From a virus (Duplodnaviria; Caudoviricetes): 56,707 bases of DNA. Below, piece after piece: positions 5,401 through 45,566 of the stretch (the stretch's first letter is position 1; each line of letters begins with the position of its first letter). The stretch covers positions 1 through 56,707 of the IMG/VR virus record IMGVR_UViG_3300044620_000273; one strand, given 5' to 3'. The notes beneath the pieces were generated by a model, which saw only the letters and a program-made list of their open reading frames with translations, did not search any database and was not told where the DNA came from. Made by a program: the position numbers and the translations under genes.

Positions 5401-8400
5401 GGCGGCACAGGCGCAACGACCCTGTCGTCGGGCTACGTCCTCAAGGGCAACGGCACGTCGGCTGTCAGCGCGTCTGTGGTGTACGACGATGGTACGAACG
5501 TCGGGGTCGGCACGACCTCAGTCAGTGCTACCTACGGAAAACTTACAGTTGCGGGCGGTATACGGACTACAGACGACACAAGCTCAAAGCTGGAACTTGG
5601 CCGCTATAGTGCTGGCGCTCCGAACAGCTACATCAAACTTGGCGCAAACAGTGCTTCCTTGAGGTTCACCAACGCTGGCGACACCGCAGATTTAATGACG
5701 CTGACAGACGCTGGTAACTTAGGGCTTGGTAACGCTTCCATACCCTACACCACCAGTGGGCGTACAGTACTTAATGTCAACGGCACTAGCTCCGCGATAA
5801 CGTCGTTTCAGACGGCTGGTTCCAACCGTGGTTATATATACGCCGACGGTTCGTTAATTTCCCTTGAAACTGAAACTGGCGTTACTCTAAGGCTGCTTAC
5901 TAACGCCCCGCAACCCATCACGTTCTTCACTAACGGGTCTGAGCGTATGCGCATCGACAGCGCGGGCCTTGTCGGGATTGGTACAAGTGCGCCGGGGTCG
6001 TACCCCTATGGTGGACTACTCAATGTCGCAGGTAGCATCTCCATGTCACTTGGCGAACGGCTTGGTTGGGGTATCACCGATGCCTTTACGCTGAACGGCG
6101 TCACCACTGCGCATTATGGGTTCACATACGGCGGCGGCACGAACCTCGTCACTTCATCGGGCTATTACGGATTAAACTTCGCTACCCTCGGCTCAGAACG
6201 TATGCGCCTCGACACTAGTGGCAACTTGAGCATCGGAACGAGTACAGCGGCTAACAGGCTTACTGTTTCCGCCACAGGTTTGAATATCACTGGTGGTAAC
6301 GCCATAGACGGCACAAACATGCAGGGTATACGTCTTCAGAACACTCTGAATGACAACAGTTCCCTCGGCCTCTGGTTTGGCACAAACAATGTCCACTGGG
6401 CGGGTATATCTGGGCAACGCACGAATTTTGCGGGTGATTGGACCACAGACTTACGTTTCTATACACACGAAGCAGCGTTGGTTGATATAACCTATGCGCG
6501 TGAACGGATGCGCATAGCTGGCAGCGGCAGCGTCACAGCCTACGTCGATATGCGTGCGCCAATCTTCTATGATAGCGACAATACTGCGTTTTATGTCAAC
6601 CCCGCAAGTGGCACGGTTCTTGGTGGAAGCTTTACGGTAGCTGGCAGTCGGCCACTTACATACTCTCCCAGCGGCGGCGATTTAGCTATCCAAGGTGACG
6701 CTGGCGGGTGGGCCACCGGTTTATATTTCCGTGGTTCGGCTGGTACAACCCGTGGCGGGTTTGGAGGCACTGGAGGTGCTGACGCATTGTCCTACCTATG
6801 GGCGGGGAATGCCTATAACGATGCCGCGCTTTATCTCTATGCGGCCAACTACGCCGAAAGCCCCGGTTCTTTCCGTGCGCCAATTTTCTACGACAGCAAC
6901 AACACTGCGTACTACGGTGACTTTGCTTCTACTTCCTCTTTAAATTCGCTTATTGTCGGAAACAATGGTAGCACTCTAGCTTATAACGCTGCGGCTACCG
7001 GAAATTTGTATTTTGGTTCGGCGGGTGGCGACGCCTCGACAAATTACCACATCACCACCAACATGGAGAATGTTGGGGGCAACTACTCGAAGCTCGATTT
7101 TAAGTGGTATACGGGCCAGCGTTTTTACGCCCACTATGCCTATGGCGGCTTCCGCTTTAAGGAAATTACCACTGGCAATACGCTGTTCTCAGTGGGCGAA
7201 GGTGACTTGCGCGTCCGTGTTTACGACAGCATTTCCGCACCAATCTACTACGACAGCGCCAACACGGCGTACTACCTCGACCCAGCGAGCACAGGAACGT
7301 CACTTATTACTGCGGGTGGAGTTTACGCTGCTGGTCAAGTCCGTGCTGCTGGTTGGTGGGGCGATGCTTCTGCTAGTGCCACAGGTTTGGCTGTTGAAAT
7401 TGGTGAGAGCGGCGGTCGTGGCTACGTTCTGACGTATAGCCGTGATGCCTCTGCTTATGGCCCGATGTCGTTTGAAGCGACGGACTTTACCTTCACAGGC
7501 ATCAGTGGCGGGTTCATTGGGGTTAATACCAGCGTTCGCGCACCTATATTCTACGATAGCAGCAACACCAATTATTACATTGACCCCGCCGCCAATCTGG
7601 GGCCACGGGCCGGTTACCTAGATGGCAACTTGTGGATTAACCCGAAATCAGAAAGCTATGGCGAAGGCGTTACCTTCAATATGCCTAGCCAAGGGACGTG
7701 GGGCGGCTTGCGTTGGTACCGCAACAGCAGTCCTTTCACTGGTAACTGGGCCTTTGGCTATTTCGGAAACGAATTTAACAACGACATTGGCTTTCACAAC
7801 GGCACTAACGGCTGGCGGCTAGACCACTCGTTCAACAATACTGTGAACGGTTCTGTCCGCACACCCATCTATTACGACAGCAACGACACCGGATACTACT
7901 TAGACCTCAACTCTACCAGTGAAGCGGCTATGCGGATGCGTGGCGGCGCGTTGATTGGGCCTAATACAAGTTACGGTGCGTATCTTCGTGTGGGAGCAAG
8001 CGGCTGGACTGGTGACCATTCTTCAGTCTTTGTAACCAACGGGAACCTTCACCTCGACGCGCAACCGGGATTTGATCTCTATCTAAACTGGTACAGTGCT
8101 CGCCCAGTTTGGAGTGAAGGTGGCGCTTATTTCCCGATATATTACGACCGCAACAACACCGCGTTTTACCTCGACCCCGCAAGCACCTCGGTGCTTTCGA
8201 CTGTCCGCGCCGCGACAATCCAACATTCGTCCGGTAACAGGGCTATTACACTTAACGGCTCTACGTGGACGGAGTTCTGTGACGTTAACGGGTCTACCAA
8301 ACTGTGGCTTGGTGGGAGCGGCGACCCAAACAACTATTACAATGCTGGTATTCACTACTTCCGCAACACGTCCAGCAGCACCACGATGACGATTGATAGC

Positions 8401-18821: not shown

Positions 18822-20596
18822 TGGCAGACAACGTCGTCCAGATCCGCTCTCTCCCCGGCATCAAGCGGGACGGCACCAAGTTCGAGGGTGACCAGTACGT
18901 TGACGGGCAGTGGGTCCGCTTTCAACGTGGCTTGCCTCGTAAGATGGGCGGCTATCGCTCGGTCAACAAGTTCCTGCGCGGCTTGCCCCGCACGCTCACG
19001 GAGTACACGCAGGATCTGCTGACCTATGTCCACGCCGGATCGGCTAACCTCGTCGAACGGTTCTACATTGACGGCACGTACAACACGAGCGTCATCAGCA
19101 ACCGCACGCCGACATCGAGCTTCACGGCCAACGACGGAAATCTCTGGCAGTTTGCCCTCGGCTATGATCTGACGAACGGCAACCAGCTTGTCGCGCAGGT
19201 CGCGCCGAACTTGAACTGCATCTGCAACAGCGACGGCGGCGAGCTCTTCGTCGGCGACCTTCTCGCCACGACCGCCTTGACGCGAGTTACGGCTGTTCCC
19301 GCAAATTTCAGCGCCACTGGCGGCGTCGTATCGCTGCCTCCCTACACTGTTGTTTTTGGCAATGACGGCTACGTTGCGTGGTCGGTTCCGAACGGACCTG
19401 ACGACTTCACCAGCTCCGGTGCGGGGAATGCCTATGTGACCGGCCAAAAGATTGTGCGCGGCATGCCGTTGCGCGGCGGCCCCGGTAACAGCCCCTCGGG
19501 CCTCTTGTGGTCCGCAGACAGCATTGTGCGTATGACATACATAGGCGGAACGCCAGTCTTCCAATTTGACACAATCAGCACCGAGAGCTCAATCCTGTCG
19601 GCGCAGTCGGTCATCGAGTATGACGGCGTCTTCTATTGGATTGGGACCGACCGCTTCCTGATGTTCAACGGCGTCGTGCGCGAGGTCCAGAACAATCTGA
19701 ACATCAACTTCTTTTTCGACAACCTGAACTATGCCCAGCGGCAGAAAGTGTTCGCGGTAAAGGTGCCACGCTTTGGCGAGATCTGGTGGTGCTTCCCGTT
19801 CGGCGACAGCCTCGAGCCGAACCACGCCGTTGTCTACAACGTGCGCGAAAACATCTGGTACGACACGCCGCTGCCCAACGGTGGTCGCGGCGCGGGCTTG
19901 TTCCCTGCCGTGTTCCGCAAGCCGCTCATGTCGGGCGTCGAGCAGCAGAATTACGAGGCCACTGCGGTCACAATCACGGCGGCAGGCACCGGATACGCCG
20001 TGGGCAACACCCTACTCGTCAGCGGCGGGATCGATGTCTTTCCGACTGAGCTGACTGTGACGACGGTCAACGGCAGCGGAGGTATTACCGGCATAACCAT
20101 CACCAACGCGGGCAGCTACACAACGCCGCCAACCAACCCTGTGTCGGTCACAGGCGGCGCAGGCTCTTCGGCCACGTTCACTTTGACCTTTGTCCAGCCC
20201 TACAAGTTCTGGGTGCATGAGGTCGGGACGGACGAGATTGACGGCACAGTGGTTAACCCAATCCTCTCCTACTTCGAGACGGGCGACATGTCGCTTCCAG
20301 TCCAGTCGCAGACCAACAAGGCCCTTCAAGTCCTTATGCTGGAACCTGACTTCGTGCAGTCTGGCGACATGACCGTGCAGGTCATGGGCCGCGCCAACGC
20401 TCGCGCGCCGGAAGTGAACGGCGAGCTCAAGACGATCTACGAAAACCCGCAAACGCCGCAAGAGCAGGTCATCTATTTTAAGGACCAGCGGCGCGAGATG
20501 CGCTTCCGTTTTACGAGTAATGCCATCGGCGGAAACTACGAGATGGGCCTTATTCTTGGGCACGTCCAGCCCGGCGACGGCACGGTCATCGGCTGA
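18821..20596 (+). CDS. Tail nozzle / P22 gp10-like DNA stabilisation protein
   Basis: About 590 aa, beta-rich; PGIKRDGT..WVRFQRGLPRKMGG; FGEIWWCFP..VVYN. Confidence 0.6.
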   Translation: MADNVVQIRSLPGIKRDGTKFEGDQYVDGQWVRFQRGLPRKMGGYRSVNKFLRGLPRTLTEYTQDLLTYVHAGSANLVERFYIDGTYNTSVISNRTPTSSFTANDGNLWQFALGYDLTNGNQLVAQVAPNLNCICNSDGGELFVGDLLATTALTRVTAVPANFSATGGVVSLPPYTVVFGNDGYVAWSVPNGPDDFTSSGAGNAYVTGQKIVRGMPLRGGPGNSPSGLLWSADSIVRMTYIGGTPVFQFDTISTESSILSAQSVIEYDGVFYWIGTDRFLMFNGVVREVQNNLNINFFFDNLNYAQRQKVFAVKVPRFGEIWWCFPFGDSLEPNHAVVYNVRENIWYDTPLPNGGRGAGLFPAVFRKPLMSGVEQQNYEATAVTITAAGTGYAVGNTLLVSGGIDVFPTELTVTTVNGSGGITGITITNAGSYTTPPTNPVSVTGGAGSSATFTLTFVQPYKFWVHEVGTDEIDGTVVNPILSYFETGDMSLPVQSQTNKALQVLMLEPDFVQSGDMTVQVMGRANARAPEVNGELKTIYENPQTPQEQVIYFKDQRREMRFRFTSNAIGGNYEMGLILGHVQPGDGTVIG

Positions 20597-30025: not shown

Positions 30026-30399
30026 CGCCCCTCTCCTTTGGCTTCGGCCAGCAGCGCGGCATAGGCTATGTTATCCTCGGCACTATCGGCGTGATACTCG
30101 CTGCGCGTGAACAGGCGAACAAGCTTGACCTGCTGCATGAACATCCAGCCTTCGCTCTCGGTCAGGTCGCGGCCTGTGATGGCATTGAAGGCCGTCACGA
30201 TCTTGCCCATCGACCGTTCGCCCTCTGGCTCGTCGTAGGTCGCAGATCGGTCGTGCATGTGCGCCGCAGCGCGGCCCAGCAGCTCGGCGGCCTTCGGCTC
30301 TGGCATCTTGGGTGTCGCATGCGACTGGAAGCAGTCCATCGTCTTCGTCAGCGTATCATACTCGACGTCGCAGAAACTGCATATAAAGCTCTTGCTCAT
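30022..30399 (-). CDS. DUF6378-like protein with N-terminal CxxC
   Basis: DRSATYD..GWMFMQQVKLVR..HADSAEDNIAYAAL. Confidence 0.65.
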   Translation of the reverse strand: MSKSFICSFCDVEYDTLTKTMDCFQSHATPKMPEPKAAELLGRAAAHMHDRSATYDEPEGERSMGKIVTAFNAITGRDLTESEGWMFMQQVKLVRLFTRSEYHADSAEDNIAYAALLAEAKGEGR

Positions 30400-31754
30400 T
30401 TCGTTCTCCGTTTCAGTGCTTCCAACAAAACCTCTTGTATCGTCTTCTTGGACGTGAGGCGGTGCATAACGAGACTATCGACCGTGTTGCGGGCGAGGAT
30501 AGGGTAGATGAAGACTGGGCGATCATAACCCGCCTGCTTCTGCCGCATCGGGCCGATGCGCTCAATGATCTGCATATGCTCTTCGAGGTTCCAGTTGACC
30601 CCATAGAAGGCCAATATATTGCCCCCATCGGCAAGGTTCAACCCGTGGCCTGCCGACGCAGGGTGCGCAAACAGGATCGGGATCTGCCCGGCGTTCCACT
30701 GCCTAATCGTGTCAGGGTCTGCGTCCAAGACCCGACCGTTACGAAAGCGATCCCGCAGCCGCGCCAAGTCATGCTTGAAATTATAGGCCACCAACACGGG
30801 CGCGCCGTTGGCTTCCTCGATGATGCTTTCCAGCGCATCCAGCTTGGCCGCGTGAACTGGCTCCCAGTTGCCCTCGTCATCTACGTACATCGCGCCGTTG
30901 GCGAGTTGCAAACACTTCTGCGTGCGCACTGCCGCGTTGACGGCCTCGACACCCTCCTCACCGATCTGCGCGAACATCTCGGTCTCCATGTCCGTGTACA
31001 TGTCCCGCGCGTCGGGCGGCAGGTCGATGTAGATCGGGTTGGTGATTGGCTCGTCGACTGGCAGGCCGCGCACGGTCAGGCAGATGTCCTTGAGCCGCTC
31101 CTCGACCTCGGCCTGCGTGTGATCGTAAGGCACGAGGCTGTAGCCGTCATAGCCCTTGCGGAACCAGCGCATGGCGAAGGCAGAGAAGCTCTGACCCAGA
31201 CGCTCGCCCTTGTCGAGGAACCAGATCTGGCCCCACAGATCCTTGACGCCGTTTGGCGCGGGCGTGCCTGTCAGGCCAATGAAGCGGTCGACGTGCGTGT
31301 GCGCCACCTCACCCAATGCCCGAGCGCGAGATCCGCCCTGCCGCAAGCGGAAGGACTTCAGGCGCGTGAACTCATCCGCGATCACAGTCTTGAAGGGCCA
31401 CGCGTCGCCCACCGCCTTCCGCAGCCAGACAAGGTTGTCATAGTTGGTCGTGTAGATGTCGGCGGGCGTATCAAGCGCCGCTTGACGCTGCTTAGGCGTG
31501 CCGGTGATGACGCTGACGCGCAGGTGCGACAGGTGCGGCCACTTCTGGACCTCGTCAGGCCACGTAGAGCGCGCAACGCGCAGCGGGGCCAGCACAAGGG
31601 CCGGATAGACGTCCTCGACCACGGAGAGGGCCTCCAGAGCCGTCAGGGTGGTTACGGTCTTCCCGCCGCCCATCGGCATCCACAGGGCTGCCCTGCGCTC
31701 CTTGTATAGGTGCGCGAGGGCCTCTTCCTGATAGTCGTGTGGTTTGAAGGTCAC
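30396..31754 (-). CDS. SNF2-family helicase
   Basis: PHDYQ, MPMGGGKT, ADEF, GLTGTP, AGHGLNL motifs. Confidence 0.9.
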   Translation of the reverse strand: MTFKPHDYQEEALAHLYKERRAALWMPMGGGKTVTTLTALEALSVVEDVYPALVLAPLRVARSTWPDEVQKWPHLSHLRVSVITGTPKQRQAALDTPADIYTTNYDNLVWLRKAVGDAWPFKTVIADEFTRLKSFRLRQGGSRARALGEVAHTHVDRFIGLTGTPAPNGVKDLWGQIWFLDKGERLGQSFSAFAMRWFRKGYDGYSLVPYDHTQAEVEERLKDICLTVRGLPVDEPITNPIYIDLPPDARDMYTDMETEMFAQIGEEGVEAVNAAVRTQKCLQLANGAMYVDDEGNWEPVHAAKLDALESIIEEANGAPVLVAYNFKHDLARLRDRFRNGRVLDADPDTIRQWNAGQIPILFAHPASAGHGLNLADGGNILAFYGVNWNLEEHMQIIERIGPMRQKQAGYDRPVFIYPILARNTVDSLVMHRLTSKKTIQEVLLEALKRRTK

Positions 31755-32443
31755 GCTGCTTCCTCGAACTTGGGCCGGGCGATTATGGTCTGCGGCACGC
31801 CGTCGCGCAAGTCATGCGCCTTGATGGTGGCCTTACCGCGAACCTTCTCGCCGCGCTCAAACGCGATGCTGCCCTTGTAGACGATGACGTTGTTGCCAGC
31901 GTCGCGGAAGATCGTGATGTAGACCGTGCCGAACTGGCTGTCGAAGCTGTGCGTGCGCTCGGCGGTCAGGTCGAAGTCGCGACGCTCGCCGACCGTGCCA
32001 ACGTGGTTGGTGTTGGCATCAGCGGCATTAGCTTCGGCGCGGGCAACCTCGCGACCGGCCAGCTTGTCCTTGGCTGCGGCAAAAGACTTAGCGACGGCGG
32101 CGTGCTGACCGTCGGTCAGACCGCCCCACTCATCGATGGCTTTGCGCATGCTGTCGAGGAAAGAACCGCGAGCGTAGAACGACAGGGGGTGGCTGACGAT
32201 CTTGCACCCGCAGACGCCGTACTTGTTGTCTTCATGCTCATACGTGCCGTCGGCATAGCGGCAGCAGCGCGAGCCGAGCTGCTCAACACCAATGAACTCA
32301 CCCTCGTTGAACAGCCAGTCGTGCAGGGTCTGCGCGTCTTCGTGCGCGGCCAGCCACTTGGCGCGGCCTGTCTTGGCGCGGTTCGCTTGGATGCGGCGGC
32401 GGATAGCGGCTTCGTAGCGGGCTTCGTTTTCGATGTACGTCAT
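31751..32443 (-). CDS. Early protein with C-terminal OB-fold-like domain
   Basis: GGAG RBS within the shared early leader; HVGTVGER..FG..IFRDAGNNVIVYK. Confidence 0.7.
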   Translation of the reverse strand: MTYIENEARYEAAIRRRIQANRAKTGRAKWLAAHEDAQTLHDWLFNEGEFIGVEQLGSRCCRYADGTYEHEDNKYGVCGCKIVSHPLSFYARGSFLDSMRKAIDEWGGLTDGQHAAVAKSFAAAKDKLAGREVARAEANAADANTNHVGTVGERRDFDLTAERTHSFDSQFGTVYITIFRDAGNNVIVYKGSIAFERGEKVRGKATIKAHDLRDGVPQTIIARPKFEEAA

Positions 32444-32451
32444 GTCGGTAA

Positions 32452-32500
32452 CTCCGTGTTGCTGATGCCCCCTAGTGGCATATGCAACGTCAGGTTGCAA
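32452..32500 (-). promoter_or_regulatory. Early promoter/operator/leader element, copy 1
   Basis: TTGCAAC-N5-GTTGCA palindrome then ATCAGCAACACGGAG. Confidence 0.7.
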
Positions 32501-32783
32501 CCCCCTTCTGCACTTTTTTCACTATTTCGTCGATTTCTTCTATCGACCGGGCGATGAACACCGGAAAACCGTCGTTTCTCATGCGCTCAATCTCGCGCTG
32601 CTGGTGCCCGCTAACGCGGTCCCCATCGGCTTTGATCTCGATGAAGGCCGCCTTGGGCCACGTCCACCAGACAAAGCAGTCTGGGCAGCCCCTGCGGCCC
32701 TCCCAGCGCACCTTGCGGTACTGACCGCCGCTCTTCTGCACGACGTGCTTGAGATGGTCCTGTAGGCGTCCTGCGGGCGTCAC
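32490..32783 (-). CDS. VRR-NUC domain nuclease
   Basis: GRRGCPD..FIEIK..SGHQ; GTG start next to the polymerase stop. Confidence 0.85.
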   Translation of the reverse strand: MTPAGRLQDHLKHVVQKSGGQYRKVRWEGRRGCPDCFVWWTWPKAAFIEIKADGDRVSGHQQREIERMRNDGFPVFIARSIEEIDEIVKKVQKGVAT

Positions 32784-32784
32784 G

Positions 32785-34749
32785 TCAGTCCTTCCTGTAC
32801 CGCTTGGTCTCAAAGCCCGCAGCGGCCAAAGGCAGGCCGCCAGACCAACTCGGGTTGGTGGACATGAGCTCGGCCAGACCGTCGCTGGTGTAGGTTGGGT
32901 TGTCCGGCGTCTCGCAGACCAACTCGTCGTGGACGCGGATGCAGACGTCGAAGCCGTCGACCTCGGCGCGCAGCATGCCGGACATGAAGACGTCGCGGGC
33001 GATTGCCTGCACTGCGTTCTCCGTCAGCTTGCCGCCATAGGTGTCGAGGCGCTCCCACTTGCGGGTGTACTGGTTCATGCCCTCATGCGTGATTTTGCCG
33101 CTCTCCGACACCTCTGGGCTCGGATAGCACAAGTACCGACCGCTCGGCAGCCGCATGCGCAGCCATGCGATGCCCTGCGTGTCCGCCTTGACGTCGAACG
33201 TGATCAGATCGCGCACGCCAAAGCTTTCGCCCAGATTGTTGATCGCCTCACGCGCGGCGGCCTCCATGTCGTACCACAGGCTGCGCGTGCGCGGGTGCGC
33301 CTTGCGCCATGCCGTGACGATCTCCTGTATGGCCTCGTCGCTCATCGCGTCAAAGACTGCGCCGCCCATCTTCCGATAGGCCCCGACGCCGCCCTGATAG
33401 CCCCCAGCGAGCTCAGGCACCTTGCCCTGAAGCTGCCGCTCGGTCTTTGTGATGTCGCCCGGATCTTTGCCGAGGATGCGTCCAGCGGTCACCTTATACA
33501 AATCGTGCCCGTCGCCGCTGTCATAGGCTTTGAAGGCTTTGATCTTCCAATCCTCGCCCGCCAGCCACGCCAGCACGCGCCCTTCGATGTTCGACAAGTC
33601 GGCGATGACCAGCTTCTTGCCCGGAGACGCGATCAACGCGCCGCGCACGCCGAAGGCGCACCGCTCGCTGATGTTGTCCCAGATGAGATCTTCGCAGTCT
33701 GCCTTAAACGCCGCGACCGTCGTCTCTTGCACGACGTCGTCAAACCAGTCAGGCGAGCGGGGCAGGTTTTGCGGCTGGAACAGACGGCCCGCATCGCGCC
33801 CTGTGCGCGCCGCGCCGCAGAACTGGATCAGGCCGCGCAGGCGACCGTCGCGTGACGTGCCGTTGAGCAGCACAGTGTATTTGGCCGGTGAAGTCGCGGC
33901 GGCCTGCTGGCGGATCTCCAACAACTCGCGCACCTGCGGATCGAGATCCCCGTCGAGCAAGTTGCTGAGGGTGCCACCCGTCAGATCTTCAGGCTCGAAG
34001 TTGAGCTTGTCCTTGAAATGGTCGAGCAGCCGCTGCCGCTGCGTGGCCGAGGTGACGTTGCCGCCAGTCAGATGGGTTGCACGAGCGGCCAGAGCTCTTG
34101 AAGTTCGGTCAAAAGCTCGGAGAGCGGATCGGGCGAAGTCGAGGTCAACGGCGATGCCACGGTCATTAATTCTTTGGTCTGTGAGCCATAGGTTGCGCTC
34201 ATAGCTAGTATCGTTCCAATGCGGCAGGCGTCCATGTACGTCGCGCATCGCGTCCACATCAAGTCGGGCGTATTCGATGAAGGCTGTCCACTCATTGGGG
34301 TGCGTCTCCCGTGTTGCTCGCCGCAATTTCCAGTTCTTGGGACACGGCTTGGTGAATAGATGTATAAGCTTTTTACCTGCTTTGTCTTTAGCTTTGTCAG
34401 TCGGCACGTTCAGGACGTCGCAGAGCTGGCCCAGAGAACCCGGCAGGCTGTGCTGTAGAGCCAGCACCATCGTGTCGATGATCTTCTCTACAGGGATATG
34501 CACGCCCTGTTCGCGCAGCACGGTGCGGTCGAAGTTGCTGTTGTGAATGACGACGCTGTCGGCGCTGTCGATCAGCTCCTGTAACACCTCACGCCAGTTC
34601 GGCATGTCCTGCGTGTCCCAGACGTCCACAGGCGCGTTGTCGGCGGCCAGCGCGACGAGCATCACCTCTGCCTCTTCGGCATAGCGGTACGCCCCGTGCC
34701 GGATGTTGACGGCGCAGAAGGTTTCCAAATCGAGGTATAGGATGGTCAT
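32785..34749 (-). CDS. DNA polymerase family A (APSE-type) with 3'-5' exonuclease
   Basis: YLDLET, HNSNFDR, ADLSNIEGR, RQLQGKVPELAGGY, VHDELV. Confidence 0.92.
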   Translation of the reverse strand: MTILYLDLETFCAVNIRHGAYRYAEEAEVMLVALAADNAPVDVWDTQDMPNWREVLQELIDSADSVVIHNSNFDRTVLREQGVHIPVEKIIDTMVLALQHSLPGSLGQLCDVLNVPTDKAKDKAGKKLIHLFTKPCPKNWKLRRATRETHPNEWTAFIEYARLDVDAMRDVHGRLPHWNDTSYERNLWLTDQRINDRGIAVDLDFARSALRAFDRTSRALAARATHLTGGNVTSATQRQRLLDHFKDKLNFEPEDLTGGTLSNLLDGDLDPQVRELLEIRQQAAATSPAKYTVLLNGTSRDGRLRGLIQFCGAARTGRDAGRLFQPQNLPRSPDWFDDVVQETTVAAFKADCEDLIWDNISERCAFGVRGALIASPGKKLVIADLSNIEGRVLAWLAGEDWKIKAFKAYDSGDGHDLYKVTAGRILGKDPGDITKTERQLQGKVPELAGGYQGGVGAYRKMGGAVFDAMSDEAIQEIVTAWRKAHPRTRSLWYDMEAAAREAINNLGESFGVRDLITFDVKADTQGIAWLRMRLPSGRYLCYPSPEVSESGKITHEGMNQYTRKWERLDTYGGKLTENAVQAIARDVFMSGMLRAEVDGFDVCIRVHDELVCETPDNPTYTSDGLAELMSTNPSWSGGLPLAAAGFETKRYRKD

Positions 34750-35039
34750 CGTTTGCCGTGCAGGATCTCGCTGATGCGACCGATGTTAATGTTGTGCGCC
34801 TCGGCAATATCTTGGTGTGTCATATCGGGGTTGTTGCCCGCCATGTGGCGCACCGACGCGCGGACGTCTGCCGTGATGCGTTTGCTCTTCACCGGCGCGC
34901 GGCTGTAGGTCCGACGGTATGTCTCCTGCATCAACGCGTTGATGCGCAAGTTTATCTCATACTGCCGACGGGACAGCTTTACGCCCTCATCGGTCAGCTC
35001 AGAAATCAAATCGCGGATTTGTGGTATGGTAAGTTTCAT
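34746..35039 (-). CDS. HTH DNA-binding protein
   Basis: MTHQDIAEAHNINIGRISEIL; AAGGAG RBS; ATGA-coupled to the polymerase. Confidence 0.75.
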   Translation of the reverse strand: MKLTIPQIRDLISELTDEGVKLSRRQYEINLRINALMQETYRRTYSRAPVKSKRITADVRASVRHMAGNNPDMTHQDIAEAHNINIGRISEILHGKR

Positions 35040-35170
35040 GCTGATAACTCCTTCTTTCAGGTGAGCCGCGCGCTTCGGTTATCAGCAACGCAGGAGCAAC
35101 CCGCACCCGCGCGCGGCTCGCCAGAAAGAAGGTACGCCCGCCGACGATACATGAGGAGAGCGGGCGTACC
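35039..35170 (-). ncRNA. Structured intergenic RNA element (two hairpins; loop antisense to the shared early leader)
   Basis: 22/24-bp inverted repeat 35050-35073/35109-35132; perfect 11-bp stem 35131-35141/35160-35170; alternative 10-bp pairing 35039-35048/35078-35087. Confidence 0.6.
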
Positions 35171-35182
35171 ATGACTATAGAC

Positions 35183-35437
35183 CTAAAGTAGGTCTAAGCC
35201 AATAGCCGAGGCATAGGTATCGAGTATCGCGAAATGTTCGTCCCTATCTTCCTTCGACATCTTGCGGATGCGCACGATCTCACGGAGGATTTTCGGCACA
35301 TATCCACGGGCCTTAGCCTCAGTGTACACGTCCCTGATGTCTTCCGCGATGCCCTTCTTCTCCTCTTCGAGACGCTCGATGCGCTCGATTAAAAGACGGA
35401 GCGGATCGCCCGCACTATTGTGTCCTACCTCGCTCAC
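35183..35437 (-). CDS. gapR: GapR-like (DUF2312/UPF0335) nucleoid-associated protein
   Basis: LRLLIERIERLEEEKKGIAEDIRDVYTEAKARGY..ILREIVRIRK. Confidence 0.88.
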   Translation of the reverse strand: MSEVGHNSAGDPLRLLIERIERLEEEKKGIAEDIRDVYTEAKARGYVPKILREIVRIRKMSKEDRDEHFAILDTYASAIGLDLL

Positions 35438-36018
35438 AGGATGTCGTCCGCGTCGGCCTTAGCCTTCGCCAGACCAGCGAACTCGTCCGCCGATGCTGGA
35501 GCGGAACCGCCACCGAAGTTCTCACCTTCGCCGGTCAGCATGACGCCGCGCAGCGAGCAGTTGATGCGACGGCCCCACTTGTTGTCCTGCGCCCAGATCT
35601 CGACCGAAGCGTTGACCAGCGCGCCGCTGAACGCCTTGGCTTCAATCTCGCTCTTGCCGCTCAGCTCTTCACCGTACTGATTGAACACGGTGGGCTGGGT
35701 CTTGGCGTTGCGGGCAGACAGATAGTGCATGCCGTCAAAGCCCTGATAGGCTTCGCCTGTCTTCTTCGAGCGGTAAACCTTCTTGGTGAAGGCAACCTTG
35801 CCATCTTCTTCAAGCATCGACAAAACGCTGTCGGCCTTGTCCTTCCAAGCTTCCTTAGCTTCGGCCAGCATAGCAGCCTCGATGGCCTTCTGCTGTTCGC
35901 TATTTGGCTTGATTGGGAACTTGGCACCATAGGCAGGTTCGCCTTCGCCAAATGCCTGCGGTTCGGCCAGAGCCGGAAACGCCAGTGTGATGCCTTTGAG
36001 CATAATACGTGTAGCCAT
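35434..36018 (-). CDS. ssDNA-binding protein (DUF2815 / Enc34-like)
   Basis: LAFPAL, SARNAKTQP, SGALVNASVEIWAQDNKWGRRINCSLRGV, acidic tail. Confidence 0.85.
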   Translation of the reverse strand: MATRIMLKGITLAFPALAEPQAFGEGEPAYGAKFPIKPNSEQQKAIEAAMLAEAKEAWKDKADSVLSMLEEDGKVAFTKKVYRSKKTGEAYQGFDGMHYLSARNAKTQPTVFNQYGEELSGKSEIEAKAFSGALVNASVEIWAQDNKWGRRINCSLRGVMLTGEGENFGGGSAPASADEFAGLAKAKADADDIL

Positions 36019-36036
36019 TATCAATTATCCACTTCT

Positions 36037-37275
36037 TCAGTTTGCAGTTTTAATAAGATCGCTGAAATCATCAGCGACCGATTGAACGGTCAATTCTGAC
36101 CGCTTATCCGAGGCAAATGCCACAGATGGCTTACCGTCGCTGCGGGAGGTCAGGGCTTCGACCTTCTCCCACCGCTTGGGGTTACTCTTGAACATCTTCT
36201 CCGCCTTTGTCGGGGAAATCAAGCTCATATCATATATTTCGTCCTGCCGCAGGCGGAAAGACTTGAACAGGGCCTCGACCTCAGCCTCATCCTTCCATTT
36301 GCGGTTGCCCTTGCGGCCTTCGACCAGCTTGAAGCCGTCGATCTTTTGTCCCGCCAACAGCCGACGCTCGACCTCGGCGCGGACGGCTTTGCACCAATCC
36401 TCGACCAGACCGACCTTCGCCATGGCGATGGACAGATAGTTGTCGCCTGTCTGCATGTCTGGCACCTCCGGCAGGAAGGCCTCGAACTCATCCAGCGTGG
36501 CCGCAGCCGATCCGCCGACGACCTCGGTCATCTCCGCACGCAGGGCTGGGCACGTCGCCTTGGCCTTGCAGAAGCGGCACTGCTTCTCACCGGGGGTGAA
36601 GAAACCCTTGACCAGATCGTCGGTGGGATCTGACATGTCGAGGCTCTGGCCCAGTTGAACGTGCCCTGCGGCTTCGCGCACCTGATCGGCAAACTTGAGC
36701 AAATCCTCTGTCGTCATGTGGCACTCGCCGACATAGTTGAGGCGGGGCATGTGGATGTACATGCTGACCGTGTCGAAGTCGCATAGGACGCCGTACATCT
36801 CCAATGCGCCCAGCGCATACATCATGAGCTGCGGATTGTTTGTCGCGTCCACGGCAACGCCCACGCCGTACTTCAGGTCGACAATGGACAGGTTGCGGCC
36901 CGCCACGTCCACGATGACCACGTCGCTGGTGCCTGTGGCTCCCTCTTCGCCTGTCAGGTGGCCGATTGGCACCTTGCTCTCGACATACAGGGTCTTGCCC
37001 TGCGACAGCTCGCGGACGAGCTTCATGTAGTCGAGAACGTGATCGATCATATCCTGCCCGACGGTAAAGTCGAAGCCGTCGACGGTGTGCTTGGTGCCGA
37101 GGTACACGGGCGTGTACGTGTCGTTGAGCAAACTCTCCGACGCAATCTCGTGCGCCAGCGTACCCTCAGCGGCGTAGATGCTGCTGTCGTCTGGATAGGC
37201 CGCCTCAAGGACGACGCTGCCCGGACAGGCCATCCAGCGGTGCGCGCCGGACGGACTAAGCTTTGCGTGTGCCAT
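36037..37275 (-). CDS. DUF2800 Cas4-like PD-(D/E)XK exonuclease
   Basis: HAKLSPSGAHRWMACPGS, GTSD, IVDLKYG, NPQLMMYALG, QCRFCKAKATC. Confidence 0.88.
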   Translation of the reverse strand: MAHAKLSPSGAHRWMACPGSVVLEAAYPDDSSIYAAEGTLAHEIASESLLNDTYTPVYLGTKHTVDGFDFTVGQDMIDHVLDYMKLVRELSQGKTLYVESKVPIGHLTGEEGATGTSDVVIVDVAGRNLSIVDLKYGVGVAVDATNNPQLMMYALGALEMYGVLCDFDTVSMYIHMPRLNYVGECHMTTEDLLKFADQVREAAGHVQLGQSLDMSDPTDDLVKGFFTPGEKQCRFCKAKATCPALRAEMTEVVGGSAAATLDEFEAFLPEVPDMQTGDNYLSIAMAKVGLVEDWCKAVRAEVERRLLAGQKIDGFKLVEGRKGNRKWKDEAEVEALFKSFRLRQDEIYDMSLISPTKAEKMFKSNPKRWEKVEALTSRSDGKPSVAFASDKRSELTVQSVADDFSDLIKTAN

Positions 37276-37721
37276 TAGGCGATCTCTGCTTCGAGGCGAG
37301 CGATCAGCTCAGGCCACAAACCGTCGTCCAGATCCGAGGCGCGGACGCCGCCGAACTCAGACAGGACGTCCTGCACAAATGGCTTACCCTTTGCGGCCAC
37401 CGCACGCAGCACCACCGGCGCAACGTCCAACTCAAAGTTGAGCGGCTCGGAGGCCGATGCCGCAGGAGCAGGGGTAGAAGAGGGTTCCGTCGTCGTTGGC
37501 TGGCTCTCGGAGCCAGCCGCAGCCTCGGCACTCTTGGGGGCCGGAGTAGGGTCCACGGGTGCGGCTTCGGCTACCCCCATAACTTCTTCGATTGTCTGAG
37601 CACCTGTGCCCCCGTTGGCGATGGGTAGAACAGCCGTGGTGGCCCGCAAGCTGGCACCGATAGCCAACAACTTGTCAGCCACTTCGGGGATGCTGTTGCC
37701 TGTTACTTCGATCTTAATCAT
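37275..37721 (-). CDS. Hypothetical protein
   Basis: Pro/Ala linker plus small helical C-terminal domain; coupled to DUF2800. Confidence 0.7.
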   Translation of the reverse strand: MIKIEVTGNSIPEVADKLLAIGASLRATTAVLPIANGGTGAQTIEEVMGVAEAAPVDPTPAPKSAEAAAGSESQPTTTEPSSTPAPAASASEPLNFELDVAPVVLRAVAAKGKPFVQDVLSEFGGVRASDLDDGLWPELIARLEAEIA

Positions 37722-37724
37722 CTA

Positions 37725-38009
37725 TCAGTTTCCTTTTTTCAGTTCTTCAATAGTTTCGTCACGCTGGCTAATCATCAGTTCGAGTTTGTTGATTTCCATT
37801 TCCAGTTCATAGACCTTGTCTTCGAGGTGGCTCACCTCGCGGTTTGCGTCGGCGGTGCGCTCGTTCGCTTCATACAAATCCGTTTCGGCTTCGAGCATTA
37901 TGTCATCCAAACGCTCGGCCAGCACAACGGCCAGCTCCGAGTTCGGGTTGTACTTCGCCTCCTCGAGCAGTTGCTGATCCTCTTCGGTGCGGTAATATGT
38001 GCGGTCCAT
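37725..38009 (-). CDS. Coiled-coil hypothetical protein
   Basis: GAGGGG RBS before ATG; acidic heptad repeats. Confidence 0.7.
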   Translation of the reverse strand: MDRTYYRTEEDQQLLEEAKYNPNSELAVVLAERLDDIMLEAETDLYEANERTADANREVSHLEDKVYELEMEINKLELMISQRDETIEELKKGN

Positions 38010-38521: not shown

Positions 38522-38576
38522 CTCCTATTTGCGTTGCTGATAAACATCATATAGTCGCTGCAATTAGGCATTGCAA
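38522..38576 (-). promoter_or_regulatory. Early promoter/operator/leader element, copy 2
   Basis: TTGCAA-N17-TATATG with TGCAAT-N5-ATTGCA palindrome, then TTATCAGCAACGCAAATAGGAG. Confidence 0.75.
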
Positions 38577-38591: not shown

Positions 38592-40661
38592 TTATTCGTA
38601 AAAAATTACAATGCCTTTTTCCATGCGCAGAGGGCCGTCCTTTTCCTTGCTAAGTTGCTGAATTGCCCTGACAATCGATTGACGGCGGATGTCACGCTTG
38701 CCCGGCTCAGGCGGTGGTAACATATCGCAAGCCTTCTGGATGAGCTCTTCTGAACGCACGACGGCGTCTTCTGCAAAGGTCGTCATGACCTCAAGCACAT
38801 GCGTCTCAAGCCGACCGCGACGCTTCACGGATTTCTTGTCCTCGGTCACGGTCGACCGCACCTCGTCCTCGACTGCGACGCAGCTTGTGATCTCGTCACC
38901 GTCCTCGTCGAAGCCCAGCAGGATCGTCTCCAACTTGAAGCCCCAGCGCAGGCCGTCCTCGCCGTCCTTCTGCTTGCTGGTGCGGATCTGGCGTGCGCCG
39001 CTGTTCTCATCGCGCGTCACTTCCAGCTCAGCGTCGACGGCGGCACGGATGCCTGACCAGCCGCGTGAGCCTCGGTGGGCGTCCTTGCCTGCGTGATGCA
39101 CAAGCTCGACCGTCGCGCCTGTCGCGGTGCGCAGGACGCGCACGTTGGCAAGGGCGAGGCCCATGTCCTCTGCGCCGTTCTCATTCGCGCCGGGCGTCAC
39201 CTGCGCAAAGGTGTCGATCACGATCAGGGACACGCCGCCGACCGCCTTGATCGATGCCGCCAACTCGGTGACGTCGCCCTCCTCCATGAGGTTGGGCGGC
39301 ACCACGATCACGCCGATGTCCAGATCCTTGGGCGAGATGCCCAGATGCTGCGCCAGCGCCTTGATGCGCTTGCCGTAGCTGCCTGCGCCTTCCGCCGCGA
39401 TGATCACGACGCGGCCCTTCTCGGCCTTGTGGCCGCGCCACGGCACGCCCAGTGCGATGCAGGCCGCCATCTCAAGCACGACAAAGCTCTTGCCTGAGCC
39501 CGACGCGCCAAAGATCGTGACGATGTCGGCGGCAGGCACGACGCCCTTGATGAGCCACTTAGCCGTCTTCTGGCTGCTCATCTCATCGGCAGACAGGACT
39601 GGGAACTTGCCGGTGTAGCCCGCAGGCGAATAGACGCCCTCTGACGCTTCCAGATCGGCGACGAGCGCATCGGCCTTGGCCGACACCTCATAGGCGCTCG
39701 CCGCCTTACTGGGGCGCGTTGCTGCGGCGTCCTTTACCATCTTGATTACGGAGGCCATGGTGACCTGCTTGCGGTTGGAGCCCTTGCGCCGCTCGAAGCT
39801 GTCCCACTGGACGCGCAGCCCTTCGGTGCCGGGGTAGGTGTAGCCTTCGCTCGACCAGTCGTCCCAGATCTCGAAGCCGTCATCGCCGCCGTCGGTCTCA
39901 TGGGCCAGAGCCATGCCGACCTTAATCCACTGCTCGCGGCCCATGTCTGGATCGAGGGCGGAGACTAGCTCCTCCATGCGCTCAATGGTCAGGCCCAGCC
40001 TCGGCTCGCGGCCTGCCATGAAGTCGTCGGGATCGATGACGTTATTCTGCACCGAACCGAAGCGGGTCTCGCATAGGTCGACCGTGTACTGGTCAACGTC
40101 GGCGACGGTGTTTTTGAGGCCGATCATCTCGCAGGCTGGCAGGATGTTGCCGGTGAAGGTCACAAAGCCTGAGCTGCTGAACGTCTCGAAGCCGAAGCGG
40201 TCGGGCGTGGCGTGGCTCTTGTGGTTGCCCAGATTGCCCCTCAGCGCGGCGCGGATGCCTTTGCCGCTGGGGCTGTACTCGGCGTAGGTGCGCACGATGA
40301 TGCGCTCGATGTCGCTGGGGATCTCACCGTTCGGCCCGACGCAGTGGTCGAAGTCGAGGAAGGTGTAGCCAAAGTCAGGCAGGGGCGCGAAGCCGACGCC
40401 GTCATAGCCCATGCGCGCGGCTGCGTCGCGAGCGGCGGCGAAGGTCGTCAGCCGTGTGCGGTCGGTCGGGGAGCCCTGCTGGCCGTGCCTGATCGTGCCG
40501 TCGGTCCAGTAGGGCACCTTACGCGGCTTGGGTTCGTTGTGGTACTTTTCAAAGCGCCAGATGAGCCACGCGGGAACTGAACGCAGTTCCTCTGGCACTT
40601 CTAACGAGAGAAGTTTGGGCGCAATTGCCCTTACGCTTGCCATGTCGTCATCCTCTCCCAC
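38592..40661 (-). CDS. Primase-helicase (PrimPol-like, PriCT-2, AAA_25/RepA)
   Basis: FLDFD, EYSPSGKG, WIKVGMAL..WDDWS, GASGSGKS, IVIDT, HHAGK. Confidence 0.88.
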   Translation of the reverse strand: MGEDDDMASVRAIAPKLLSLEVPEELRSVPAWLIWRFEKYHNEPKPRKVPYWTDGTIRHGQQGSPTDRTRLTTFAAARDAAARMGYDGVGFAPLPDFGYTFLDFDHCVGPNGEIPSDIERIIVRTYAEYSPSGKGIRAALRGNLGNHKSHATPDRFGFETFSSSGFVTFTGNILPACEMIGLKNTVADVDQYTVDLCETRFGSVQNNVIDPDDFMAGREPRLGLTIERMEELVSALDPDMGREQWIKVGMALAHETDGGDDGFEIWDDWSSEGYTYPGTEGLRVQWDSFERRKGSNRKQVTMASVIKMVKDAAATRPSKAASAYEVSAKADALVADLEASEGVYSPAGYTGKFPVLSADEMSSQKTAKWLIKGVVPAADIVTIFGASGSGKSFVVLEMAACIALGVPWRGHKAEKGRVVIIAAEGAGSYGKRIKALAQHLGISPKDLDIGVIVVPPNLMEEGDVTELAASIKAVGGVSLIVIDTFAQVTPGANENGAEDMGLALANVRVLRTATGATVELVHHAGKDAHRGSRGWSGIRAAVDAELEVTRDENSGARQIRTSKQKDGEDGLRWGFKLETILLGFDEDGDEITSCVAVEDEVRSTVTEDKKSVKRRGRLETHVLEVMTTFAEDAVVRSEELIQKACDMLPPPEPGKRDIRRQSIVRAIQQLSKEKDGPLRMEKGIVIFYE

Positions 40662-41646: not shown

Positions 41647-41696
41647 CTCCGTGTTGCTGATGAGCCATCCCTAATCGATGCAATCAGACATTGCAA
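41647..41696 (-). promoter_or_regulatory. Early promoter/operator/leader element, copy 3
   Basis: TTGCAATGTCTGATTGCATCGATTAGGGATGGCTCATCAGCAACACGGAG. Confidence 0.75.
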
Positions 41697-44958: not shown

Positions 44959-45155
44959 GCTTCCACCTGTCCGTTGCGGATGATCGTGATCTCGTCGCCC
45001 TCGTTGGGCCAACGCTTGTCAACAACGCGGTATACGTGTTGGTCCCACTTGCTGAAGGCGCGGCCCGCTTCGACGGCCATGTGGGCGAAGCGGAAGGTGG
45101 CGACTGGGTGCCACTTGTGGGTTTCGGTGTCTTTGTGTTCCAGTTCGATTTTCAT
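44955..45155 (-). CDS. Hypothetical early protein
   Basis: Leader TATCAGCAACAGGAG before ATG. Confidence 0.7.
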   Translation of the reverse strand: MKIELEHKDTETHKWHPVATFRFAHMAVEAGRAFSKWDQHVYRVVDKRWPNEGDEITIIRNGQVEA

Positions 45156-45161
45156 GATGTG

Positions 45162-45196
45162 CTCCTGTTGCTGATAGGGTGGGGGCCGGAGCCCCC
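45162..45196 (-). promoter_or_regulatory. Shared leader, copy 4, preceded by a GGGGGC-UCCG-GCCCCC hairpin instead of a promoter
   Basis: UNCG tetraloop hairpin 45181-45196, then ATCAGCAAC-A-GGAG. Confidence 0.6.
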
Positions 45197-45202
45197 GTTG
45201 GG

Positions 45203-45502
45203 TTAGATGCGGTTGGCTGCGACGATGGCGCAGAGGACGGCAGGGTTCTTGTGGGTGCGATAGAAGTCACCGCAGTTGTATTCCCACTCGTCGTCACACT
45301 CGAAGCGGTGGGCGGTGCCGAACAGTTCGCCATCGTAATAGAAGTCGACGGTGTGGAAATCGTACTTTGGATCGTCACCCTTCACGGTGTTGAAGTTCCG
45401 CAGCTCGAAGTCGTAACCGTTGAACGAGAACTTGCTGTCGCGGATGTTGATGGTGGCTTCTTCGCCGGACCAGTTGCTCTTGTTGAAAGTGATGAAAGTC
45501 AT
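45203..45502 (-). CDS. Hypothetical protein, first early gene
   Basis: Shared leader with GGAG; aromatic and acidic, 99 aa. Confidence 0.7.
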   Translation of the reverse strand: MTFITFNKSNWSGEEATINIRDSKFSFNGYDFELRNFNTVKGDDPKYDFHTVDFYYDGELFGTAHRFECDDEWEYNCGDFYRTHKNPAVLCAIVAANRI

Positions 45503-45510
45503 GATTTTTA

Positions 45511-45566
45511 CTCCGTGTTTGCGTTGCTGATGAGCTATCCCTAATCGATGCAATCAGGCATTGCAA
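45511..45566 (-). promoter_or_regulatory. Early promoter/operator/leader element, copy 5
   Basis: TTGCAATGCCTGATTGCATCGATTAGGGATAGCTCATCAGCAACGCAAACACGGAG. Confidence 0.75.

Follow-up and report, generated by a model that had tools for sequence, protein, structure and literature searches.

The junction between gapR and the DNA polymerase operon

The window analysed here, a stretch of 56,707 bp, is the complete IMG/VR record IMGVR_UViG_3300044620_000273 of an uncultivated phage and has direct terminal repeats. The genes on its - strand between approximately 29.7 and 46.2 kb make up the replication and early region. The element described below is the second of two tandem hairpins within that region, in the spacer that separates a gapR-like gene from a helix-turn-helix (HTH) gene and the DNA polymerase gene. 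The stem of this hairpin covers the Shine-Dalgarno (SD) sequence of the gene that follows, and its loop carries the exact complement of a leader found in front of early genes. Genes and RNA features given below lie on the - strand, unless the other strand is named.

The gapR-like gene (35183..35437, 84 aa) was identified by the Pfam domain GapR_DNA-bd (E 6e-31). The HTH gene (34746..35039, 97 aa) matches phrog_23243 (E 1e-16) and, weakly, Sigma70_r4. Its ATG lies at 35039 and its stop overlaps the start of the polymerase gene (34746-34749), in line with the coupling of the two genes proposed in a preliminary description of this DNA. The polymerase (32785..34749, 654 aa) is a family A enzyme with the Pfam domains DNA_pol_A and DNA_pol_A_exo1.

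The first hairpin (hairpin 1; 35131..35170) resembles a terminator. It consists of a GC-rich stem of 11-12 bp (GGUACGCCCG / CGGGCGUACC), followed by the U-rich run CCUUCUUUCU, in which 7 of 10 bases are U, with C interruptions. A simple terminator scan missed this hairpin because its loop exceeds the 8-nt limit of the scan. The U-rich tail of hairpin 1 is used a second time, namely as the anti-SD strand in the 5' arm of hairpin 2 (35132-35109, identified by folding and by covariation). The predicted apical loop of hairpin 2 is 35 nt long (35108-35074), and the 3' arm (35073-35050) covers the AAGG of the sequence AAGGAG (35053-35048) in front of the HTH ATG. The stem is composed of 9 bp, a U.U mismatch, 2 bp, a C.A mismatch and 11 bp, i.e. 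22 pairs in 24 positions. The stem and loop of the preliminary description (24 positions with 22 matches, 35 nt of loop, AAGGAG partly buried by the 3' arm) were thus recovered by folding 35132-35050 of the - strand. The energy of the stem is about -50 kcal/mol. For the 161-nt region as a whole the fold reaches -72.7 kcal/mol, against -54.1 +/- 4.1 kcal/mol for shuffled sequences (z -4.5; 0 of 200 shuffles as good), and the + strand of the region folds about equally well.

The loop contains UUGCUCCUGCGUUGCUGAUAAC, with the 9-nt core GUUGCUGAU at 35089-35081, an anti-SD CUCC at 35096-35093 and, in addition, GGGUGCGGG. Opening the core costs 0.64 kcal/mol in the window and opening 16 nt costs 5.65 kcal/mol. 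A stretch complementary to part of the loop is also found close by: GUUAUCAGCA (35039..35048), between the SD and the A of the ATG, can pair with 35087-35078, and the perfect match of 10 bp described earlier for these positions holds.

A coding function of the region was considered and rejected. The start codon of a 57-aa open reading frame that spans the hairpins (34999-35172) is changed from ATG to ACG in relatives, and the SD-like AGGAG on the + strand is not followed by a start codon.

A candidate sigma70-like promoter, TTGGCT-N17-TATAGT (35174..35202; 9 of 12 matches in a consensus scan), overlaps the gapR stop. The pattern TTGGCN-N17-TATAnn is retained in 26 of 40 distinct upstream contexts of relatives, always with a spacing of 17 nt. 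If this promoter is active, hairpin 1 would possibly form the 5' end of the polymerase-operon transcript and not merely be a terminator.

Early leaders complementary to the loop

The loop core GUUGCUGAU is the exact complement of the leader sequence AUCAGCAAC. Exact copies of ATCAGCAAC occur six times on the - strand of the window (32466, 37978, 38541, 41661, 45175 and 45531); the + strand has two, one at 19094 and that of the loop at 35081. The - strand copies are located just upstream of GGAG and an ATG in five cases, and within a coding region in the case of 37978. When up to two mismatches were allowed in a 12-mer, 11 matches were found where 3.2 +/- 1.9 were expected, a number that none of 100 shuffles reached. 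All leader copies lie on the sense strand, the sole antisense copy being that of the loop. The search for exact copies therefore sustains the proposal that the loop is complementary to the leaders of five early genes, including their SD, and the perfect matches of 14 nt (38543-38530) and 12 nt (45531-45520) that had been put forward are present.

The five leaders precede the genes at 45502 (leader at 45523..45531), 45155 (45167..45175), 41638 (41653..41661), 38513 (38533..38541; a gene of the replication operon, with the longest loop match of 14 nt) and 32443 (32458..32466; downstream of the polymerase gene). The duplexes were calculated with a conserved 19-nt segment, which was adopted in place of the whole loop, and range from -19.4 to -24.6 kcal/mol for the five leaders, with -24.2 kcal/mol at 45502, -19.8 kcal/mol at both 41638 and 32443, and -19.4 kcal/mol at 45155. 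In a scan of the segment against 37,786 windows of the genome (mean -10.5, sd 3.1) the first rank was taken by the loop's own complement, and the leaders at 38541, 45531 and 45175 ranked 2nd, 4th and 13th.

Four of the five leader copies are found behind a conserved promoter (32452-32500, 38522-38576, 41647-41696 and 45511-45566), which is characterized by an A/T-rich upstream element, GGGG-TTGCAA, the palindrome TGCAAT-N5-ATTGCA and a weak -10. The palindrome is a likely operator. Of 95 distinct promoter copies collected from the window and related contigs, 94 have a -35-like box that starts 34-36 nt upstream of the motif. With standard sigma70 geometry the first A of the motif would then be the transcription start (+1), so that AUCAGCAAC would form the 5' end of early and middle transcripts, with GGAG 0-8 nt behind it.

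The fifth copy, at 45175, lacks a promoter and lies behind a hairpin, GGGGGCUCCGGCCCCC. Similar promoter-less copies, located between cistrons and beside ribosome sites, were observed at four of the related loci introduced below (L007, L011, L012 and L042). Short GC hairpins with UNCG-type loops adjoin such copies, before or after the motif, in the window (45162-45196) and in L007, L011 and L012, at about +2698 (L007), +2575 (L012) and +2957 (L011) from the polymerase start. These hairpins could be processing or stability elements.

Conservation and co-variation in related phages

A search of IMG/VR with the polymerase yielded 110 relatives, 80 of which were kept, and two further searches added 33 new contigs; their loci are designated by L and a number. 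The word GTTGCTGA is present within 1.5 kb upstream of the polymerase in 56 of the 72 sources with a known polymerase start, although in one of these (L079) it is not part of a hairpin. In the relatives, too, the C-terminus of GapR is encoded upstream of the element, and the place of hairpin 1 is occupied by a GC-rich hairpin, which mostly follows the gapR stop and behind which the element is always found. The element invariably lies over the SD of the next gene, whether that gene encodes the HTH protein, the polymerase or another protein. The distance between the loop and the polymerase start varies accordingly: it is about 340 nt with the HTH gene, 45-52 nt where this optional gene is absent between the hairpin and the polymerase, and 692, 1056 or 1343 nt with other genes. 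Because the position is constant despite the changing next gene, the element belongs to the junction of gapR and the polymerase operon and not to the HTH gene. The placement of the hairpin over the ribosome-binding site of an HTH-polymerase unit, as it was originally described, is thus correct for the window, but the element is not tied to that unit. The slot behind the hairpin was observed to be mosaic (L001, L007, L021, L037, L046, L060 and L071), each inserted gene adopting the arrangement with the SD in the stem. In L085 (~5560-5610) most of gapR is missing, as is hairpin 1, and the N-terminal part of the gene runs straight into the 5' arm of hairpin 2, which may reflect either a natural deletion or an assembly fault.

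For an analysis of the stem we aligned 32 distinct sequences (the window and 31 loci), all chosen by the exact word GTTGCTGA, with duplicates and L079 left out. RNAalifold predicts the long stem plus a small inner helix, and 97.3% of the 894 cells are paired. Ten of the 28 pairs (51 cells) have changed on both sides, and 0 of 500 shuffles, uncorrected for relatedness, reach any of five measures of the stem. When the partners were slid by 1-3 columns, only 42-62% of the cells remained paired. Distant members (L039, L047, L050, L060-65, L088-97 and L244) have wholly different arm sequences and nevertheless keep the architecture. The purine-rich SD strand is located in the 3' arm of this conserved, covarying helix in all 32 homologues, as in an SD-sequestering hairpin. 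Where only one side of a stem pair has changed, the result, read on the coding strand, is mostly G.U (17 cells, with one pair being U-G in 9 sequences), and A.C in at most 4 cells. This excess of G.U, together with the SD always being in the 3' arm, favours an RNA of the coding strand. Within the loop, CGTTGCTGA is unvaried in the 32 aligned sequences, and the core has a mean unpaired probability of 0.72 over 48 homologues. Many relatives (e.g. L004, L008, L038, L042, L045 and L052) carry AUCCACCCUU in the loop of hairpin 1, which is lacking in the window. The CACCC of that loop could kiss the near-invariant GGGUG of the hairpin 2 loop (in GGGUGCGGG). The conservation of GGGUGCGGG otherwise lacks an explanation.

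A covariance model was built from the same alignment; another alignment, A2, in which both strands were mixed, was not used for counts. On the coding strand the model matches 71 of 112 IMG/VR loci at E <= 1e-12, and four further matches were obtained for L244 (7e-12), L097 and L102 (both 2e-8) and L070 (2e-5). The loci that lack a match belong to more distant relatives or to contigs truncated ahead of the polymerase start. None of the Rfam 15 families, C4 included, matches anywhere in the window at gathering thresholds, and within 34700-35500 there are two sub-threshold matches to microRNA models (23.2 bits with a threshold of 51, and 18.8 with a threshold of 268). The weak match in L070, whose polymerase is 57% identical, lies ~105 nt upstream of the polymerase start. 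Here the SD-locking stem is kept and the loop is different: it contains UGUCCCUCCA, complementary to the ribosome site UGGAGGGACA of a promoter-proximal gene ~2.8 kb upstream. The anti-SD part may thus be older than the 9-nt seed.

The loop and the leaders change together. Loop/leader pairs were taken from the model search, an earlier k-mer screen having been too noisy. At most loci the loop GUUGCUGAU is accompanied by leaders AUCAGCAAC. In L047, L049 and L058 the loop reads GUUGCUGAG and the leaders CUCAGCAAC (1 of 1 leader per contig), in L046 the loop is GUUGUUGAU and the leaders are AUCAACAAC (3 of 3), and in L060, L061 and L064 loop GUUGUUGGU is found with leaders ACCAACAAC (5 of 5; the contig of L062 is too short to show a leader). 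Finally, L244 combines loop CCUUCGUUGCUG with leaders CAGCAACGAAGG (3 of 3), its conserved block being shifted towards the SD. In 34 of 38 filtered distinct locus types there is at least one exact complement of the own loop core that is linked to a start region; the four without are L007, L008, L062 and L088. The relatives therefore retain both the leaders and a complementary loop, the opposite of an outcome that the preliminary description had named as refuting. In four clades an exposed segment complementary to the start regions of its putative targets has been kept through compensatory changes, as expected for a trans-acting antisense RNA.

In a FastTree phylogeny of 53 polymerases, 49 of which come from loci with the element, the GUUGUUGGU group forms one starred clade, L046 is nested among members with GUUGCUGAU, and L047 is the sister of L050. 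Provided that the polymerase tree reflects the history of the element, which phage mosaicism could blur, this would amount to at least four separate events of co-substitution in loop and leader. Both internal changes of the core are transitions that can pass via a G.U intermediate. The polymerases of L036 and L037 are almost identical; in the 8 kb seen of L036, the upstream region is of another kind, and both element and leaders are absent.

The contiguous complementarity is 9-16 nt in the leader copies at promoters and between cistrons, and 7-8 nt in a few weaker matches, mostly in coding regions. Beyond the core, the 5' half of the loop often complements the SD and the bases following it, as in the extended pairs GUUUGCUCC/GGAGCAAAC (L043 and L085), GGGUACUCC/GGAGUAC (L042 and L068) and GGGUGUCUCC/GGAGACACC (L091 and L093). 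Among 19 loops with an identical core, pairing with the own leaders (-28.7 kcal/mol) is stronger than pairing with the leaders of other genomes (-27.3 kcal/mol; 4 of 5000 permutations, uncorrected for phylogeny). Two of the three types of single-base leader variants, GUCAGCAAC and AUUAGCAAC, retain pairing via G.U.

Complementarity of at least 7 nt to the start region of the gene behind the hairpin occurs in 31 of 49 distinct elements. This cis target has the form (G)UUAUCAGCA or GUAUCAGCA between SD and AUG, matches the loop over 7-11 nt and covaries with the 3' flank of the loop (GAUAAC with GUUAUC, and GAUACAC with G(U)GUAUC). It is missing from 18 of the 49 elements, among them every clade with a changed core (L046, L047, L060-64 and L244).

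The remaining genes of the region agree with its assignment to replication and early functions: they include a helicase (30396-31754), a primase-helicase (38592-40661) and a DUF2800 nuclease together with an Enc34-type single-stranded DNA-binding protein, all on the - strand. Judging by the gapR homologue, the host may be an alphaproteobacterium. By its polymerase the nearest isolate is Caulobacter phage RW (58.8% identity), in which we found only a small SD hairpin, without such a loop and without a match to the covariance model. Among 50,697 records of isolated phages no DNA match was obtained, either by megablast of 32000-38000 or by blastn of the element. A pattern scan of bacterial genomes gave listed matches that are taxonomically scattered, with 0 of 80 listed loci fitting the covariance model, the pattern being too short to give a lead to the host. 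No RNase III gene was found in the phage. A search for a T7-type RNA polymerase gave no match, but neither did the control of that search.

Possible roles of the hairpin

The conservation of the hairpin and the co-evolution of its loop with the leaders point to a new RNA-on-RNA control of phage gene timing. The exposure of the loop, the strict orientation of the copies, the anti-SD bases and the co-evolution with the leaders favour a repressing antisense element with multiple targets that is embedded in the polymerase-operon mRNA; its loop would bind early leaders as well as start regions, and its stem would hold down translation of the polymerase. We put the probability of this interpretation, which is based on comparison of sequences, at about 50%.

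According to this model, the U-rich tail of the gapR terminator would pair with the purine-rich SD of the next gene, and RNA that arises by read-through, or from the possible promoter at the gapR stop, would carry a closed ribosome site, resulting in low translation of the polymerase operon. The stem alone would be sufficient to keep translation of this operon low and uncoupled after the presumed terminator. The loop would expose CUCC and, a few bases further downstream, the anti-leader GUUGCUGAU; together they complement the 5'-terminal nucleotides and the SD of a transcript. The targets would be sigma70-type early and middle transcripts, together with some internal start regions and, in many cases, that of the gene following the hairpin. 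Pairing in trans with these leaders and start regions would block binding of the 30S subunit and, as the very stable hairpin RNA accumulates, translation of the first cistrons would be turned down. At about -50 kcal/mol, opening of the stem needs processing or a helicase. The stem, with 22 bp and two 1x1 mismatches, has the length of an RNase III substrate (about 20 bp or more of double-stranded RNA), and it is a reasonable guess that the host enzyme cleaves it. Host RNase III would then perhaps process the long stem and thereby also free the SD of the polymerase operon. Altogether, pairing of the RNAs in vivo, repression and processing by RNase III are steps that we infer.

A number of points weigh against this model. 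Co-variation of the loop and the leaders is equally expected if one protein reads the motif in double-stranded DNA in either orientation. The direction of the regulation and the RNase III step are purely conjectural, and the presumed transcription starts were derived from promoter geometry. Folding of both strands gave nearly equal energies, that of the coding strand being better in 36 of 48 cases. A search for RNA data sets with the sequence listed none, and the single sequencing run with the element sequence (its RNA type guessed; word share 0.33) yielded 33 low-depth contigs of related strains, which give neither ends nor strand. In the scan with the 19-nt segment two of the five leaders, those of the form AUCAGCAAC-AC-GGAG, fell outside the top 25, and a 36-nt query with the whole loop was swamped by GC-rich chance duplexes, with only one leader in the top 20. 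Moreover, the spacer between core and SD does not always co-vary (in L039 the loop has UUC and the leaders GCA), and the third single-base variant type, the promoter-linked leader AUCAGAAAC of L011, has a mismatch that is not a wobble pair.

A bolder version of the antisense model, which we consider only tentatively, is that the hairpin is cut from the polymerase-operon RNA to become a stable trans-acting anti-leader RNA. This RNA would pair with the 5' ends and SDs of all early operons and act as a timer for the transition from early expression to replication, with the variants AUCAGCAAC, CUCAGCAAC, AUCAACAAC, ACCAACAAC and CAGCAACGAAGG representing RNA specificity classes. If true, co-infecting related phages would be sensitive or insensitive to each other's regulator according to their class, i.e. 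there would be an RNA-based heteroimmunity in lytic phages.

The main rival explanation, though an unlikely one, is that the 9-mer is a double-stranded DNA site for one protein of the phage or the host. This could be a shut-off repressor that binds at +1 of every early promoter, the loop copy being an inverted site that serves as a roadblock or for autoregulation in front of the polymerase operon, and the RNA hairpin a separate matter. It speaks for such a site that the motif is placed at +1 to +9 in promoters with a palindromic operator, and a joint change of all copies is what a change in protein specificity would produce. The motif is asymmetric, however, and no candidate protein is conserved beside it, the HTH gene being absent there in many relatives. 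A DNA site also leaves unexplained the promoter-less copies beside ribosome sites, the fact that the one inverted copy is always found at the unpaired tip of an RNA hairpin with covariation, and the clade-specific extension of the complementarity to the SD and the bases after it. The G.U pairing of GUCAGCAAC and AUUAGCAAC (two of three leader variant types) likewise argues for RNA, albeit as a weak point.

It is improbable, to a slightly greater degree, that the hairpin acts purely in cis, as an SD-sequestering structure that sets the polymerase level and is probably an RNase III site like those in T7 and lambda early RNAs. The loop would then pair only with its own start region (UAUCAGCA) and the likeness of the leaders would reflect a common enhancer-like motif. 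The cis complementarity in 31 of 49 elements, the indel co-variation of the 3' flank of the loop with the start region, and a 22-bp stem with two conserved 1x1 mismatches as a plausible RNase III substrate are all in agreement with this explanation. It fails for the 18 elements that keep the loop motif without a cis target: since these include the changed-core clades, the co-variation there is with distant leaders. Furthermore, cis pairing is incompatible with the lower part of the stem, as the start region abuts the 3' arm.

The preliminary description had also proposed a natural toehold-like switch, in which the 5' ends of early mRNAs bind the loop, open the stem and switch on translation of the HTH and polymerase genes. 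The SD is indeed sequestered, the trigger-like sequences belong to abundant early RNAs, and loop and leaders co-vary. Complementarity to the leaders is confined to the loop, though, which makes such an activation quite improbable: within their first 60 nt, none of the five leader mRNAs can pair with the sequestering 5' arm over more than 6 nt, the - strand as a whole does not contain a single 10-mer complementary to this arm, and a stem of about -50 kcal/mol should not melt by binding of the loop alone. Very improbable, finally, are a + strand hairpin that would capture a leader-binding factor as a decoy (the fold of that strand is almost equally good and its loop resembles a complete leader plus SD, but there is no promoter-like sequence upstream on that strand, where the genes differ between relatives, no start codon behind its SD, and the wobble pairs favour the coding strand) and a loop that mimics a host ribosomal RNA segment with which the leaders pair as translational enhancers, since such a target is not expected to change at two positions between close phage clades.

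Relation to known RNA regulators

Antisense RNA control in phages has been described for a few temperate model phages, usually with one target. Among the papers listed for both 9-mers, which were matched only by sequences of the primer type, and for phage antisense, leader and SD control, none describes the present element. The element is a structured RNA outside the Rfam families, present in at least 71 environmental phage contigs. A whole set of operons shares the 5' leader that its loop matches, and the loop has followed several changes of this leader by compensatory changes of its own. Should the pairing be true, the element would be a compact natural riboregulator with multiple targets, linking expression of the early genes to the replication operon. 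The specificity classes found in nature amount to ready-made compensatory mutants for a test of the pairing and could serve as orthogonal parts for RNA control in alphaproteobacteria. Even if the motif is read by a protein, the data define two features, a +1 element common to the regulon and a conserved hairpin that locks the SD before the polymerase gene.

In the rpoS leader with its regulators DsrA and RprA and in the synthetic toehold switches, as in the element, a long hairpin of the 5' untranslated region hides the SD, and the signal is proposed to come from an RNA acting in trans. There, this RNA invades the stem by pairing with a toehold or the sequestering strand, whereas here the complementarity is confined to the loop. 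Long imperfect hairpins between the cistrons of polycistronic phage RNA are also known from T7 early RNA and the lambda N leader, where they are RNase III sites and cleavage frees the downstream ribosome site. Unlike the present hairpin, these are not known to have a conserved loop complementary to other messages, and in the present phage the host enzyme would be needed. The alphaproteobacterial small RNAs AbcR and CcsR carry C/U-rich anti-SD bases in hairpin loops and act on many mRNA targets, a likeness in keeping with the host suggested by gapR. They are stand-alone RNAs of the host, whereas the element resides within a phage mRNA and has a specific 9-nt seed besides the CUCC.

Closer parallels are found among the immunity RNAs of temperate phages. 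The CI RNA of P4 is a small hairpin RNA cut from the early transcript, and it controls replication genes by pairing with complementary sites (seqA, seqB and seqC) that recur within the same transcripts. P4 immunity operates by premature termination of transcription, whereas the predicted targets of the present loop include the SD, and no family match links the two RNAs. The c4 RNA of P1 and P7 (Rfam C4) is likewise a phage stem-loop RNA within a longer operon transcript, the exposed bases of which pair with phage ribosome-site regions, and matched changes in antisense and target define its specificity classes, as in the heteroimmunity of P1 and P7. There is no sequence or structure match to c4 in Rfam, and the hairpin described here also locks the SD of the next gene. 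Moreover, c4 targets its own immI operon in a temperate phage, whereas the predicted targets of the present element are the 5' ends of several operons in an apparently lytic phage.

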